Assembly (NCBI GenBank): GCA_963749495.1
Contig: CAVVMW010000021.1
Coordinates: 1-64,000 of the forward strand
Reading direction: 5' to 3'
Source of the DNA: an uncultured bacterium
GTDB lineage: Bacteria > Verrucomicrobiota > Verrucomicrobiia > Limisphaerales > UBA8199
Length of the DNA: 64,000 nucleotides
Positions within the stretch are counted from its first letter, which is position 1. Every line of letters starts with the position of its first letter. The position numbers and the translations under genes are program-made. Positions 27,943-57,510 of the stretch are shown in pieces. The notes below the pieces were generated by a model, which saw only the letters and a list, made by a program, of their open reading frames with translations, was not told the origin of the DNA and searched no databases.

Positions 27943-28090
27943 AAGGCTAGAATAAAGGCTAAAGGCTAAAGGCTAAAGGCTAAAGTGGCGAAAGGGACGA
28001 TTGAGAACACCCCTTTGATGTCCGCCCTCCCTTCGCTACTTTAGCCTTTAGCCTTCAGCCTTCAGCCTTTCCCCTCAGCCTTCAGCCTTT
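27943..28090. repeat. (AAAGGCT)n - 55-bp core - (TAGCCTT/CAGCCTT)n hairpin element
   Basis: Core 27985-28039 matches 42372-42426 in reverse orientation. Confidence 0.9.
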
Positions 28091-40971: not shown

Positions 40972-41076
40972 GGGGAGCGGGAACAACCCCCAGCGCGGCA
41001 TTGACTCAGCCGGGCGGAGGATGTAACAACGGGGCCGACGCGCGCGCCGGCGATGGCGCGCAGGCCGATGGCAATC

Positions 41077-42363
41077 ATGAGCACTTCACATTGGACCAGC
41101 CGCAGCCGAGTTCAGGCCGCGCTCAACCATCAACAGCCCGACTGTGTCCCGATGGATTTCAGCGGCACGGCGGTGACGGGCATCCATGTCTCGGCGGTGA
41201 CGCGGTTGCGGCGCCGGTTGCTGGGCGAGCCGGACTACCGGGTGCGGGTGATCGAGCCTTACCAGATGCTGGGCGAACTGGATGACCGGCTGCGCGCCGC
41301 GCTGGGCATCGATGTGATTGGGGTAACCCCGCGCAAGTCCATGTTCGGCACCGAGTCCAAGGACTGGAAGCCCTTCACGCTCTTCGACGGCACCGAGTGC
41401 TTGGTGCCGGGCCAATTCAACGTCACCCGCGCCGAGGACGGCGGCTGGCTCATCTACCCGGAGGGCGACACCAGCGCGCCGCCCCGGGGCCACATGCCGC
41501 AGGGCGGTTATTTCTGCGACACGATCGTTTACCAGGAACCGATCGACGAGGCAAAGCTCGACCCGCAGGACAACCTCGAGGAGTTCGGCCTGCTGAGCGA
41601 GGCCGACCTGGCCTACTTCCGCGACAAAAAGCAGTGGGTGCAGGCCCGCCCCGATTACGGCTGCATCCTGACCATCCCCGGCGCAGGTTTCGGCGACATT
41701 GCCCAGGTCCCTGCCCCCTGGCTCAAGCGTCCCAAGGGCATCCGCGACATCTCGGAGTGGTATGTCTCGACCAAGACGCGCCGCGATTATGTGTACGCCG
41801 TCTTCGAGCGCCAGTGCGCCATTGCCCTCGAAAACACCAAGACCCTCATCGACCTGTTCGGCGGCCTCGTCCAAGCGGCCTGGATTACCGGCACCGATTT
41901 CGGCACGCAGCGCGGGCCGTTCATCTCCTGCCAGGCCTACCGCGACCTGTTCAAGCCGTTTCACAAGCAGATGGCCCAGCTCATCCATCGCCGCTCCAAC
42001 TGGAAGGTCTTCATTCATTCCTGCGGCTCGGTCTTCGCGCTCATCCCCGACTTCATCGAGGCCGGCTTCGACATCCTCAACCCGGTCCAATGCTCCGCCG
42101 CCGAGATGGACGCCGCCCGGCTCAAGCGCGAGTTCGGCAAGGACATCGTGTTTTGGGGCGGGGGCGTGGACACGCAGCAGACGATGCCCTTCGGCACGCC
42201 GGAGCAGGTTTATCGCCAGGTGCGCGAGCGAATCGGGCTCTTCAATGCAGGCGGCGGTTTTGTTTTCAACTCCGTCCACAATCTCCAGGGCAACACCCCG
42301 CTGGAGAACCTCGAGGCACTCTTCCGGGCGGTGCGGGAGGAAAAGCTAAAGGCTAAAGGCTAA
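41077..42363 (+). CDS. Uroporphyrinogen decarboxylase-like / MtaA-type methyltransferase family protein
   Basis: DFGTQ, FIHSCG, LNPVQ, FWGGGVDTQ and HNLQ motifs. Confidence 0.88.
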   Translation: MSTSHWTSRSRVQAALNHQQPDCVPMDFSGTAVTGIHVSAVTRLRRRLLGEPDYRVRVIEPYQMLGELDDRLRAALGIDVIGVTPRKSMFGTESKDWKPFTLFDGTECLVPGQFNVTRAEDGGWLIYPEGDTSAPPRGHMPQGGYFCDTIVYQEPIDEAKLDPQDNLEEFGLLSEADLAYFRDKKQWVQARPDYGCILTIPGAGFGDIAQVPAPWLKRPKGIRDISEWYVSTKTRRDYVYAVFERQCAIALENTKTLIDLFGGLVQAAWITGTDFGTQRGPFISCQAYRDLFKPFHKQMAQLIHRRSNWKVFIHSCGSVFALIPDFIEAGFDILNPVQCSAAEMDAARLKREFGKDIVFWGGGVDTQQTMPFGTPEQVYRQVRERIGLFNAGGGFVFNSVHNLQGNTPLENLEALFRAVREEKLKAKG

Positions 42364-42443
42364 AGGCTAAAGTGCGGAAGGGAGGGCGGACCTCAAAGGG
42401 GTATTCTCAATCGTCCCTTTCCGCACTCTAGCCTTTAGCCTTT
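42344..42443. repeat. (AAAGGCT)n - core - (TAGCCTT)n hairpin supplying both convergent stop codons
   Basis: Stops at 42361-63 and 42428-30 both lie in repeat units. Confidence 0.9.
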
Positions 42444-42784
42444 TTGTCAATTGTTGTGAAAATGGCGATCAACTGGTGGGTCTCGTCGAGGAGATCGGCC
42501 ATCCTGGGTGCGGGGACGCAACCGCTATCAACGAGCAGTTCGAGCCAATACTCGGTTTCATCGATTTCCTTGAGGCAGTGGCCGATCTTGGAAATGAATT
42601 CGCTCTTGGATCGGGCGCGCGCTGCCTCGCGATAGTTGGCGCCTACCGAAGTTGCGGAGCGCAGGACCTGTTTACCGAGCACCTGCGCCACCGTATCATT
42701 CTTTGGCAGCTTTGAATACATCCGAATGACTCGGAGCGCGAAGGCCTTCGTTCTCGGTTTCAGTTCCTGTGGTTGGTCATTCAT
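42428..42784 (-). CDS. Four-helix-bundle protein (23S rRNA IVS protein / Avd-like family)
   Basis: RTKAFAL..., QVLRSATSVGANYREA, FISK..., KE..ET.YWLELL motifs. Confidence 0.92.
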   Translation of the reverse strand: MNDQPQELKPRTKAFALRVIRMYSKLPKNDTVAQVLGKQVLRSATSVGANYREAARARSKSEFISKIGHCLKEIDETEYWLELLVDSGCVPAPRMADLLDETHQLIAIFTTIDKKAKG

Positions 42785-42881
42785 AGGCAGGAATGCTAAG
42801 GGTAGGAGGCGAGAAAGCCAACTCCGGAGGCTGACAGCTAAAGGCCCGCGTGCCTGTCAGGTGCCGCACCGCGCTCCGCCA

Positions 42882-42907
42882 CTTTAGCCTTTAGCCTTTA
42901 GCCTTTT
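42882..42907. repeat. (TTAGCCT)x3 run upstream of the four-helix gene, supplying the stop of the next gene
   Basis: ctttagcctttagcctttagcctttt. Confidence 0.8.
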
Positions 42908-44265
42908 CCCCAGACGCCTTCCGGGCCGAAGAGATGGTCCAGGGCCGTTTCGAGGGTGCCGGTGCGCATGGCGAGGTCCAGGGCGGTGAAGCGGCGGCGC
43001 AGGAAGCAGGCCTGCCAATAGGTCCGGCGCAGCCGCGGGCGGGTGATGCCGATCTGCTCCGGTTGGACGGGCGCGCCGGCGGCCTCGAGCATGGCCCTCA
43101 GCTCGGCCAGGGGCAGCAGTTGCTCGCGCAGGCGCCGGCTCAGTTGGGGCCAGGCGCCGCGCAGCGTTTCCAGTTGCTGGCGCAGCCCGGCGCGGTCCAC
43201 GGCCTTGGCACGGGTCTCAACAAGGGCGACCTCCCTGGCCTCGCCCGGTTCGAAGGCTTGAATGACCTGTTTTTCGAGGGCGGGCGGGTCGGGCCATTGG
43301 GCGCAGCAACGGTCCACGTCCAGGCGTTCCAGCGGCAGGGCCAGGAGGTATTCATAGAGGGCGGTGACGGCGAGTGTGCCGATGCCGACCTTGAACCCGT
43401 GCCAGGGGATCTTGCCCTGGTGGGTATGATGCTCCATGTCCCATTGATGGCTGAACTGGTGTTCGGCGCCCGAGGCAACGCGGCTCGATCGAGCCCAGAC
43501 CATGGCCAGCCCGCCCAGCATCAGGCCCTCGGTCAGACGCCGAAGCGCCTCCAGGTCGCCGGTGCGCACGCCCGCCGGGTCGGCCAGGACCTCGCGCAGG
43601 CGGCCCTGGATGATGTCCCAGGCGCCCTGGTTGATGGGCTCGGTCCCCACGGCATCGGCCAGCATCCAATCGGCCCCGGCAGGGACCTTGGCGATGAGAT
43701 CGGCGTAGCCCGCCGCATTCAACTCCGCAGGCGCACCAGCGATCACATCCAGGTCGGCCACGACCGCCACCGGGGCAGGGCAGGGGAAGGTCTGCTTCGA
43801 GCCGTTGTGAGTGATCGAAGCCCCGTAGGCGGTATAGCCATCCATGGAAGCCGCGGTCCCCACGACCATGTAGCGTCGGCCCAGGCGATGCGACGCCAGC
43901 TTGGTCAGGTCGTTAATGGTGCCGGAGCCGACAGCCACCGGGCCGGCCCCTGGATGGGCGCGCAAGACCTCCTCGACCGCGACCACGAACCGATCCTCGG
44001 CATAGAGGTGCGGGTCCTTGAAGATGAACGGCGGCTCCACGGCATGCCCTACGCTCGAAAATGCCTCGACCACCGCGCGGCCCGCCGCCGCAAACGTCTG
44101 CTCGTCCGCAATCACCAGCGCCGGTTTGTTCCCAAACGCAAGGACGAAGAGAACCGGCGTCTGCCCCAACACGCCGCGGTCCAGCTCCAGCCAAAGGGTC
44201 TCCTGGGTCGCCCGGAGGGCGCGGTGCATGTGTGCTCTCAAATCGTCTTGCACGGTATCGCTCAT
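42898..44265 (-). CDS. sn-glycerol-1-phosphate dehydrogenase (AraM/EgsA-like)
   Basis: GSGTINDLTK, TAASMDGY, SGAEHQFSH and HGFKVG motifs. Confidence 0.88.
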   Translation of the reverse strand: MSDTVQDDLRAHMHRALRATQETLWLELDRGVLGQTPVLFVLAFGNKPALVIADEQTFAAAGRAVVEAFSSVGHAVEPPFIFKDPHLYAEDRFVVAVEEVLRAHPGAGPVAVGSGTINDLTKLASHRLGRRYMVVGTAASMDGYTAYGASITHNGSKQTFPCPAPVAVVADLDVIAGAPAELNAAGYADLIAKVPAGADWMLADAVGTEPINQGAWDIIQGRLREVLADPAGVRTGDLEALRRLTEGLMLGGLAMVWARSSRVASGAEHQFSHQWDMEHHTHQGKIPWHGFKVGIGTLAVTALYEYLLALPLERLDVDRCCAQWPDPPALEKQVIQAFEPGEAREVALVETRAKAVDRAGLRQQLETLRGAWPQLSRRLREQLLPLAELRAMLEAAGAPVQPEQIGITRPRLRRTYWQACFLRRRFTALDLAMRTGTLETALDHLFGPEGVWGKG

Positions 44266-44442
44266 CGCCCTGAAGTTACGAGACAAAGCGCCGCCTTGCA
44301 ATGGAACAAAGGACACCGGGATGAGGGAAGGCGCATTTCCCGGCGCAAATGGTTCGGCGTCTATCCGGCCAACAAGATCGCATTTGGCGGACTTGCCTGG
44401 CGTGGCGGGAACGATTCAGGATATCCGCAGAGTTGTATGCCG

Positions 44443-48939: not shown

Positions 48940-48999
48940 ATCAGGACACTGCTAATTGCAGTTATTCAGACGCTTGCCCAAGAGCGAATGTTACAGCAG

Positions 49000-49421
49000 G
49001 ATCATGGAAGAAAGAATCATCAGAAACAGAATCATTTTTGGCAGAACAGAGAGATGCATTGGGCCTGGGATTCATGATGGGTTTGCTTTTCCGAGGTCTT
49101 GCTCCTTACCGTGAAAATGTCCGGAATTCAATTCGCGCATGGTTCAGATTCACCCACTGGAGAAACGGGAGCCTGGTGTGCGCCAGGAACCGGCGTTGGT
49201 GTTGCGCCGCACGATCATGGAAGAAAGAATCATCAGAAACAGAATCATTTTTGGCAGAACGGAGAGATGCATCGGGCCTGGGATTCATGATGGGTTTGCT
49301 TTTCCGAGGTCTTGCTCCTTACCGTGAAAGTGTCCGGAATTCAATTCGCGCATGGTTCAGATTCACCCACTGGAGAAACGGGAGCCTGGTGTGCGCCAGG
49401 AACCGGCGTTGGTGTTGCGCC
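49000..49421. repeat. 209-bp tandem duplication (period 213) of the GxxExxY gene 3' end
   Basis: 49000-49208 versus 49213-49421, three substitutions seen. Confidence 0.9.
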
Positions 49422-50122
49422 ATCTGCTCGATGCTCTTGGTAACTGCTGTGAGCCTGAACGCCGTGTCCCCAATTACCAGCCCAATCTTCTGCCTGCCGA
49501 GCAAACGAACCCCGTCCCATAGTTCCACTTCACCGGGCTCTGCATTCGGACCATTGAGCAAATGGTTCATCGCCTCGCGGTAGGGGCTTATCTCGAGGAA
49601 TGCCCCCCAGTCCTCCAATAGCTCGATGAGCTTCCTCCTGAACGTGCCGCTTGCCACGTCGAGCTCACGCCATTCATCGTCCACAATGCAAAACCTCCTC
49701 CTCTGGGCCGCGTCCAGGGTAGTCGATACAAACTCCCATTCGACGCTCGGTGGGCGAAGATTGAGCAGTTTTCCATGCCTCAAACCGGCCATCAGGAGGT
49801 AATTGAGCGCCTGTGCGCGGTGGGCTGGGCTGATGGCCTCCGCTGTCTTCACCTCAACCATCATCCCATGCGCGAAGACAAGGTCCATGTAGTAGTCCTT
49901 TCGAAAGGACTCATGCGTAAGACGAATCCGGACCTCCTTCTCAATTGGTGCAATGCCTGATTCGGTGCATCGCCCTGCGATAGCCCCCTTGTACAACTCC
50001 TCATCCAAGAGCCTGCCAAATTCGTTGTGGACCGCGAAAACGGCCCCCATGACTCGCTTGTCCATTGCATGGAACTCCTCCTGGCCAAAGGCCCGTATTT
50101 CCGTGGCAACTTCGATCGGCAT
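49319..50122 (-). CDS. GxxExxY-family protein (PD-(D/E)XK-like), long form
   Basis: VHNEFGRLLDEELY, MDLV...VEVK, H.AQ.LNYL motifs. Confidence 0.85.
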   Translation of the reverse strand: MPIEVATEIRAFGQEEFHAMDKRVMGAVFAVHNEFGRLLDEELYKGAIAGRCTESGIAPIEKEVRIRLTHESFRKDYYMDLVFAHGMMVEVKTAEAISPAHRAQALNYLLMAGLRHGKLLNLRPPSVEWEFVSTTLDAAQRRRFCIVDDEWRELDVASGTFRRKLIELLEDWGAFLEISPYREAMNHLLNGPNAEPGEVELWDGVRLLGRQKIGLVIGDTAFRLTAVTKSIEQMAQHQRRFLAHTRLPFLQWVNLNHARIEFRTLSR

Positions 50123-56635: not shown

Positions 56636-57268
56636 ATGAAGGAACTGACGAAGAGACAACGCCAGGTCCTGGAGTTCATCCAGGACCGCCAGGATGCAGC
56701 GGGCCTCGTTCCGACCTACCGCGAGATAGCCGCGCATTTCGGTTTCAACAGTCCGAACGCAGTGCTGGCGCACGTCAAGGCCCTGCAGAGCAAGGGGTTT
56801 TTGAAAAACCAGCCGGGCCGCGCCCGGACTTTCCAGGTGATGAATCCCAGCGCGCCGAGGCACCGGTTGCGGCCGCGCATCCTCTCGGTGCCCATCTACG
56901 GCACCATCCCTGCCGGTGTCCCGATCGAGGCCGTCCAGGAAGACGAGGGGTGCGTGCTGATCGACGTGGAGACGCTGGGGATTCGGCCGAGCGCCCGCAC
57001 CTTTGGCTTGAAGGTCCGGGGCGATTCCATGCTCGGCAAGAACATCGTGGACGGCGACATCGCCATCATCGAGCATGGCCTGGCGCCGCGTCCCGGCGAC
57101 GTGGTGGCCGCGCTCATCAACGGGCAGGTCACGCTCAAGACTTTTGTCGTGCAGCGGGGCAAGGCATTTTTGCGCGCGGAAAATCCCCGCTATTCGAACC
57201 TGGTCCCCCAGGAAGAACTGCAAGTCCAGGGCGTTATGGTGGCCCTGGTGCGCAGGCGGAAAGGCTAA
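56636..57268 (+). CDS. lexA: LexA repressor
   Basis: LTKRQ..VL.FI wHTH, PTYREIA, Ala-Gly cleavage site IPAG, catalytic GDSM and TLK. Confidence 0.93.
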   Translation: MKELTKRQRQVLEFIQDRQDAAGLVPTYREIAAHFGFNSPNAVLAHVKALQSKGFLKNQPGRARTFQVMNPSAPRHRLRPRILSVPIYGTIPAGVPIEAVQEDEGCVLIDVETLGIRPSARTFGLKVRGDSMLGKNIVDGDIAIIEHGLAPRPGDVVAALINGQVTLKTFVVQRGKAFLRAENPRYSNLVPQEELQVQGVMVALVRRRKG

Positions 57269-57510
57269 AGGCTGAAGGCTAAAGGCTAAAGGTGAGGGAC
57301 GAATGACAAATGACAAATGACAAATGACGAATGACGAATGACGAAGGGGGGCCGAGCAGGGAAGGGCGCGAAGCGTTTTGGACTGGCGCAGTCCAAAACC
57401 TGGCGGCCTGGATACCGAGTGCCGACGGGCGCCGCCTCGTCTCCGCTTCGTCATTCGTCATTTGTCATTCGTCATTCGTCATTCGACCCTCGTCTCTCGA
57501 CCCTCGGCCC
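57260..57510. repeat. Stacked repeats between lexA and the polymerase gene
   Basis: (AAGGCT)x4, (RAATGAC)x6, short family D palindrome, (TTCGTCA)x5, (TCGACCC-like)x4. Confidence 0.88.

Follow-up and report, generated by a model that had tools for sequence, protein, structure and literature searches.

We analysed the window, a 64-kb stretch of contig CAVVMW010000021.1 (assembly GCA_963749495.1, from an uncultured bacterium of the Limisphaerales), and focused on a small cassette in which a four-helix-bundle gene is enclosed by inverted arrays of the heptamer AAAGGCT. The cassette is an insertion at the junction between two host genes. We estimate at roughly 55% the probability that the gene and its inverted arms together form a selfish cassette that spreads itself with the help of its protein, and that hairpins without the gene and solitary arms descend from it as non-autonomous copies. 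This reading is built on three observations. Four related genomes have four different heptamers at this one junction, each matching a cassette resident in the same genome; each clade of the protein keeps its own heptamer; and dispersed arrays occur mainly where the matching cassette resides, with three units fitting well and a fourth loosely. In what follows, plain coordinates refer to the window, G000 is the source genome (11.4 Mb, 88% complete) and C21 is the contig of the window. The features are:

42428..42784, minus strand: four-helix-bundle gene (TIGR02436 / PF05635), 118 aa, intact; its stop codon lies within the inner heptamer run
42882..42906, minus strand: 5' arm, (AAAGGCT)x3.6 on the gene strand (CTTTAGC x3.6 on the plus strand); supplies the stop (42898-42900) of the upstream host gene
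42785..42881, minus strand: leader, from the 5' arm to the ATG; present once in the genome, with just one 17-base match elsewhere
42429..42443, minus strand: inner AAAGGCT run of two units (TAGCCTT x2.1 on the plus strand); overlaps the 3' end of the four-helix gene (last codons plus stop) and is one arm of the 3' hairpin
42373..42427, no strand: hairpin core, 55 bases; three armed copies in the genome (here, 27990-28034 and C21:281279)
42341..42372, plus strand: outer 3' arm, (AAAGGCT)x4.6 on the plus strand; supplies the stop (42361-42363) of the URO-D-like gene
41053..42363, plus strand: host flank, URO-D / MtaA-like gene; natural stop replaced by the arm, judged from C-termini in congeners
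42898..44316, minus strand: host flank, glycerol-1-phosphate-dehydrogenase-like gene (Fe-ADH_2); natural stop replaced by the arm, judged likewise
27943..28090, no strand: AAAGGCT hairpin without a gene, sharing the core above; on one side is the nuoA start (27909), on the other an open reading frame (ORF), which we take to be queD, whose stop (28082-28084) lies in the arm
57260..57292, plus strand: AAAGGCT arm without a nearby partner, outside of GAATGAC arrays

The original prediction, made from the letters of the window, had described a 118-aa four-helix gene more AT-rich than its neighbours, an AAAGGCT hairpin at its 3' end with a heptamer run upstream, and a gene-less copy of that hairpin. 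The gene is as described (TIGR02436, 87.4 bits), with a GC content of 54% compared to 64% and 68% in its two neighbours. The arrays and the fold of the 3' hairpin also stand (z -7.1 on the plus and -7.7 on the minus strand, with 0/200 shuffles equally stable), with the refinement that the inner arm contains just two units. The hairpin without a gene at 27943-28090 is confirmed as well (z -10.1). Of 45 core bases, 43 agree with the target core, and beyond the window there is a third armed copy at G000:C21:281244-281357. The outer arms are complementary terminal inverted repeats of about 30 bases, yet they are variable tandem arrays, and the outer 3' arm has two possible pairing partners, the inner run and the 5' arm. 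When the whole cassette was folded (z -6.0, reached by none of 100 shuffles), a stem closed around the gene by the outer arms was predicted, while the stretch upstream of the gene folded alone gave nothing unusual (z -0.1). A core specific to the gene was considered and rejected: most AAAGGCT cores in G000 differ from the target core, and among 59 such cores, homologs elsewhere are lacking for 25, and 29 correspond to unarmed repeats. Half of the target core itself resembles an unarmed family of the repetitive extragenic palindromic (REP) type.

The pairing predicted around the gene also suits an explanation that starts at the RNA level. The arms would then be an RNase III stem that excises the gene from mRNA, or stop-codon hairpins tuning translation or mRNA decay, with the protein binding array RNAs as a regulator and host selection keeping the arrays. 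Coxiella's intervening sequence (IVS), with heptamers ahead of its S23p ORF and RNase III cutting (described in part of PMC4990558), speaks for this, as do arrays abutting stops and starts, which are reported in sections of the papers on Xanthomonas (PMC4692102) and Beggiatoaceae (PMC4679880). A scan gave no terminator-like sites and one weak promoter-like site, and the origin of the arrays is left unexplained. A regulatory signal of the host would also be expected to be better conserved than the junction unit, which is a different one in each of the four congeners. As the primary explanation we consider this quite improbable, and it is compatible with a self-spreading cassette.

The junction itself was compared among relatives. 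A homolog of the dehydrogenase is present in 24 of 45 family genomes (27 loci), and the URO-D neighbour is retained only in G000 and the three congeners G001, G002 and G003, which keep the same junction. The four-helix gene occurs at one of the 27 loci, that of G000, and is missing in all three congeners, so the gene is not syntenically stable, in line with the mobility proposed earlier. None of the three congeneric junctions is pristine, and each has its own heptamer. In G003, the host stops on both sides are supplied by a gene-less ATGAAGT hairpin, ATGAAGT being the unit of that genome's own truncated cassette (L173). In G002, an element of about 215 bases occupies the junction. It can be aligned to the leader and tail of that genome's three gene-bearing cassettes and retains the first codons of the four-helix gene; it is a cassette from which the gene has been deleted. 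The claim that gene-less hairpins are derivatives can thus be seen directly in this congener, where 39 of 40 scored candidates are near-full-length gene-less copies with 81-100% identity. In G001, where the natural stops are intact, the spacer measures 13 bases and can be read as about 1.7 units of GAAATCC, which is that genome's dominant heptamer and also forms the arm of its cassette L187; this genome additionally has a truncated cassette of the AAAGGCT clade (L172).

Copies of the gene-less family (G002 L220-L249 and G003 L221) start right after a TAG/TAA-like word, and in most of those shown the end is formed by a small hairpin and TAA/TAG, about 50 bases past the arm. The family resembles a larger miniature inverted-repeat transposable element (MITE) that has taken in a heptamer cassette. 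G002 also has a multi-copy four-helix subfamily (L255-L259), whose members share 85-95% identity and carry hexamer arrays enclosed by inverted ends of about 28 bases. Of three copies scored, two are flanked by direct repeats (14 and 8 bases), and the set should be useful for establishing true ends.

The target protein matches TIGR02436 (87.4 bits, cut-off 24) and PF05635 (66.7 bits, cut-off 33.8), and its closest homologs are mostly from Verrucomicrobiota. A predicted model (predicted local distance difference test score 95) has four helices at residues 9-24, 31-55, 60-86 and 92-117. By template-modelling (TM) score, the nearest folds are 2RLD (0.84) and the chains of 2GSC (0.74-0.84). A phmmer search for solved relatives returned 2RLD alone, which has five chains, and Xcc0516, a protein of the PF05635 family, was solved as a pentamer, according to PMC4990558. 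Because these solved relatives are pentamers, the target protein probably forms a homopentameric ring. The part of PMC5524665 that concerns the four-helix family merely lists its genes.

A relation to Avd, the accessory protein of diversity-generating retroelements (DGRs), had been proposed as well. It holds for the fold (TM 0.69 to the Avd structure 4DWL, at 10% identity) and not beyond it: the target protein gave no match to the Avd profile, TIGR02436 being the sole profile listed, and reverse transcriptase (RT) was not found in two of five array-rich genomes. In a reading modelled on Avd, the pentamer would recruit an RT in trans, and this RT would use cassette RNA to copy the arm onto DNA ends, much as telomerase does. 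Avd binds RNA in crevices between its protomers and is required by its RT, as described in part of bioRxiv 10.1101/2023.10.23.563531; templated addition would suit both the fixed array phases (n x 7 with about 4 bases added) and the absent target duplication described below; and G000 has five RT loci. Four of these five score best as group II intron enzymes, there is no RT near the cassette, and the two array-rich genomes without an RVT_1 match are G001 (254 GAAATCC, 94% complete) and G038 (31 GAATGAC, 96%). This makes an RT-dependent accessory role very unlikely in our view. One RT-like ORF (L142, G000:C23:740706), whose best match Drt3a is far below cut-off, is apparently split over two frames and lies between two ORFs that we take to be sigma-factor-like and nuclease-like.

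The pairing of protein and heptamer is not confined to the target. G000 has 10 TIGR02436 matches, making eight loci, one of them frameshifted and one truncated. The original prediction had asked for each paralog to be paired with its own heptamer and core. Heptamer arrays were found at six of the eight, every unit being different (the other two have a 12-mer and an imperfect 9-mer), while the cores turned out to be mostly unrelated. A strict test for matched arms was passed by 4/8 paralogs in G000, 59/103 homologs and 0/250 random genes. For a quick tree of homologs, seven of 110 loci were left out (short match or stop), and L065 was left out of the protein alignment owing to a stop codon. In this tree, a 19-member clade with the target (97 in the Shimodaira-Hasegawa-like approximate likelihood ratio test) includes all 10 loci called RAAGGCT; the other three labelled members carry AAAGGAT or AAGGCAG, and none of the 46 labelled loci outside the clade carries RAAGGCT. 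Over the whole tree, heptamer labels require 40 changes compared to 48.9 when shuffled, with 0/200 shuffles as low. Label clustering by itself could be shared descent. Synonymous divergence in the clade is high (median pS 0.67) and dN/dS is 0.08 (112 finite of 153 pairs), so the protein is under strong purifying selection, and only three pairs among the 19 clade loci share flanks, none involving the target. The unit thus persists despite near-saturated synonymous sites and mostly unrelated flanks, which argues for constraint.

No further four-helix genes were found between long-spaced arms among the 45 scanned of 127 ORFs. Genes of the antitoxin, CopG-type, PIN-domain and FHA kinds (L146, L154, L161, L163) also lie between heptamer arms, as do a few from further families. 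The GGAGTGC-armed paralog (L164, G000:C21:707908, grouped with L017 and L019) adjoins tRNA genes (three Rfam tRNA hits) and appears to be an older, stable insertion, similar flanks recurring in relatives. One clade cassette (L069) follows the 3' end of a gene that we read as tRNA-Sec, and at L003 and L060 the first codons of the downstream gene, presumably hsdM-like, are repeated upstream.

Heptamer arrays are abundant throughout the source genome. G000 contains 1038 perfect heptamer arrays of at least three copies, compared to 2-58 arrays for each other period from 5 to 14, and over a hundred gene-less AAAGGCT arrays are dispersed through it. Complementary pairs within 200 bases share one orientation (132 vs 11), in which the purine-rich arm strand points into the spacer. 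To relate array positions to stop codons, we used a self-trained gene model of 7644 genes, 5518 of them confident. Among 888 outermost purine-strand arrays, 128 contain a same-strand stop and 130 start at most 30 bases after one (258 in total), whereas for 1038 other-strand arrays these numbers are 8 and 51 (59 in total), and 92 of 5000 random intergenic points fall within 30 bases after a stop. AAAGGCT arrays lie at a stop in 91 of 163 cases, and 51 of the 163 supply it from unit 1, 2 or 3 (25:17:9). Length is also restricted, with 61, 213, 287 and 110 of 844 arrays having 3, 4, 5 and 6 units, i.e., a peak at 4-5. The ends are phased: 112/177 AAAGGCT arrays start exactly at RAAGGCT and 143/177 reach 4-6 bases into the next unit, phases that are fixed despite differing cores. 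Single arms are frequent (62/177 for AAAGGCT, without a partner within 700 bases, and 201/396). When units are nested, AAAGGCT is never inner (two cases outer) and GGACTGT never outer (16 cases inner).

These data leave little room for the simplest explanation, that the arrays are microsatellites grown by slippage and that the gene lies among them by chance. The genome is indeed repeat-rich, with its 691 array clusters, and duplicated segments differ in copy number. Periods other than 7 are not abundant, the length distribution peaks at 4-5 units rather than falling off, and the polarity, the fixed phases and the random-gene control (0/250) all contradict it; slippage is refuted on these grounds and we give it next to no weight.

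No target-site duplication was detected: 34 AAAGGCT hairpins, 71 GAATGAC hairpins and 13 cassettes were at or below shifted controls, four of the 17 clade loci giving no arm call in this test. A clean empty heptamer site was not found within G000 among 151 elements, eight of which have paralogous flanks. Two duplicated segments, G000:C4:860255 and C4:862305, differ by about 190 bases that include a 9-mer hairpin; this stretch is bounded by a direct repeat of 7 bases, located where a GAATGAC arm has its outer edge. Among strong ATG genes, just 159/1457 have a Shine-Dalgarno-like word (start calls are rough); arms directly before start codons may be tolerated because such words are scarce.

Beyond the cassette, window positions 3377-62525 also have GAATGAC, GGACTGT, GAAATCC, GGAGTGC and TCGGCTA arrays plus 12-mer arrays. 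A 213-base tandem duplication (48996-49421) overlaps the end of a GxxExxY (PD-(D/E)XK) gene at 49319-50122, one of 18 GxxExxY matches in the genome.

If cassettes spread their own heptamer, arrays of a given unit should be found where its cassette is found. Genome-wide unit tests in 41 genomes agree with this to a large extent. At least three copies of AAGGCTR were present in 6/6 relatives with a homolog of at least 72% (2-188 matches) and in 11/34 others (1-11 matches). GAATGAC x3 occurred in 5/40 relatives; the three closest homologs of the paralog with GAATGAC arms reside in three of these, and the remaining two, G020 and G035, are exceptions. Two units were predicted beforehand. ATTTATG x3 was found only in G024 (68 matches) and G020 (1), both with an ATTTATG cassette, and in 0/39 others; GAAATCC x3 was positive in 4/4 predicted genomes. 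The units vary separately, since G023 has 188 AAGGCTR and no GAATGAC matches and G038 has no AAGGCTR and 31 GAATGAC matches.

A different reading of the same data is that the hairpins are moved by unrelated transposases, REP-associated or of the insertion sequence (IS) type, and that the gene travels with them as cargo, retaining its original arms. Conservation of the protein would then have a different cause, for example a role in addiction or defence. Arms are likewise found around antitoxin genes, PIN genes and REP-like repeats, the G002 gene-less family is nested in a larger element, the second four-helix subfamily of G002 sits inside inverted ends with 8- or 14-base direct repeats at two of three copies, and the clustering of labels on the tree would follow from shared descent alone. 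A passenger would not be expected to keep its unit up to near synonymous saturation with differing spacers, and the absence of target duplication, the common single arms with fixed phases despite differing cores, and the lack of matched arms at 250 random genes also argue against such transport. We consider it unlikely, although it deserves more weight than the other alternatives.

For the self-spreading cassette, a mechanism can be sketched by analogy. A five-membered ring would read about one heptamer per subunit on single-stranded nucleic acid, which would be RNA if Avd is a guide. The bound arm would then be handed to a host or co-resident enzyme, and this enzyme would write the arm into gene ends, replacing the old stop codon and spacer, rather than by cut-and-paste. 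A five-ring with one heptamer per subunit would fit both the peak at 4-5 units and the clade-specific unit. If a 7-mer contains a stop codon, three units of it place a stop in each reading frame, and insertions would therefore be tolerated. The fixed phases, single arms, lost stops and lack of duplication fit arm-writing better than cut-and-paste.

Several findings weigh against the self-spreading cassette. No partner enzyme was found, RT having been tested as a candidate and a trans-acting transposase not having been searched for, and a catalytic domain is absent from the profile and fold matches of the four-helix protein. The strict arm test was failed by 44/103 homologs and 4/8 paralogs, and 52/100 forks of the quick tree are open. 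Three common units, GGACTGT (94 arrays), GAGGGGC (54) and GAGGGTC (42), have no four-helix partner among the eight G000 loci found, some arms far exceed five units, certain units contain no stop codon, and the stop-codon positions depend on the self-trained gene model. In the genome-wide unit tests, matches overlap and kin are not independent; the cassette's own arms make up part of the matches (e.g., 4/12 in G027), and GAAATCC x3 was also present in 12/37 other genomes, including G024 (94), G028 (36) and G027 (23). Finally, the G002 family is compound, with the arms inside a larger element that has its own ends, and another transposase may have amplified it.

A bolder generalization is that PF05635 proteins drive a class of mobile elements without a transposase, in which each pentamer reads a 7-base code of its own, with one unit to a subunit, and causes 4-5 units to be written at gene ends, replacing stops. 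We hold this to be possible, at somewhat less than even odds. If true, it would explain why heptamers are in excess in many bacterial genomes and give the S23p family a function; the 23S IVS would be one landing site of a general element, with a hint at the origin of Avd. Two old puzzles would be linked, the role of the widespread S23p / four-helix-bundle proteins and the excess of 7-base repeats at bacterial gene ends. G000 offers six natural protein-heptamer pairs in one genome. Should the link be causal, genomes could change, and the C-termini of proteins be rewritten, through an element that encodes no transposase, and nature would offer a family of rings that read repeats in different codes.

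Among known systems, the closest is the 23S rRNA IVS of Coxiella burnetii, which, in the account given in part of PMC4990558, contains an S23p ORF, has complementary ends and tandem heptamers just upstream, and is cut by RNase III. The cassette shares with it a PF05635 protein, complementary ends enclosing the gene, heptamers and a GC content below that of the host. Unlike the IVS, it lies between protein genes, both its arms are heptamer arrays that supply host stops, and many gene-less arrays are dispersed in the genome. Identity with a 23S rRNA IVS was rejected on the basis of the flanks, which are protein genes and not rRNA, and an Rfam scan of L001 gave no match. By analogy, the cassette may work like an IVS that has moved out of rRNA.

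Intergenic 7-mer arrays at gene ends have been described before. In Xanthomonas and Nostoc, the purine-rich strand lies just after stops and the other strand before starts, and arrays are often paired as inverted repeats; the relevant passages of PMC4692102 name no source of the repeats. In Beggiatoaceae, TAACTGA arrays are located just before start codons, the mechanism being called not evident in PMC4679880, in whose text four helix, S23 and pentamer are unmentioned. The arrays studied here share the intergenic position, the polarity and the frequent inverted pairing. Supplement 2 of PMC4692102 lists, among its Xanthomonas entries, a GGGAATC array 6 bases after the bccP stop that overlaps the start of XCC0516, named only 'conserved', with no inverted partner given in the entry. 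Since XCC0516 encodes the solved pentamer of the family, this array gives independent support for the pairing of gene and array.

The cassette resembles Avd (4DWL) in its four-helix fold, Avd being a pentamer that binds RNA between protomers (parts of bioRxiv 10.1101/2023.10.23.563531 and PMC10053308), and differs from it in the low identity (10%), the missing Avd profile match and the lack of an adjacent RT. The original prediction that no transposase or RT is adjacent proved correct for the 15 window ORFs scanned, the target included. A DGR was rejected as identity, with no RT among the neighbours and none of the six RVT_1 matches of G000 on C21; gene and leader are single-copy in G000, which bears on a template and variable repeat, although no dedicated search for a repeat pair was made.

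MITEs and REP/REPIN elements depend on a transposase acting in trans, exist in gene-bearing and gene-deleted forms, and form hairpins near stops with many non-autonomous copies. The cassette is like them in its gene-bearing and gene-deleted forms, its hairpin shape, its intergenic location near stops and its non-autonomous copies. In contrast to these elements, its protein is no transposase, its arms are variable tandem arrays, single arms are common, and host stops plus spacer are replaced. Membership among MITEs or ISs fails, with no target duplication and no transposase in the cassette or the scanned neighbours. A literature search, in which subscription journals were thinly covered, returned no paper tying the four-helix family to dispersed heptamers. 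Set beside these systems, the cassette points to an undescribed kind of self-spreading element behind the unexplained 7-base repeats of bacteria.

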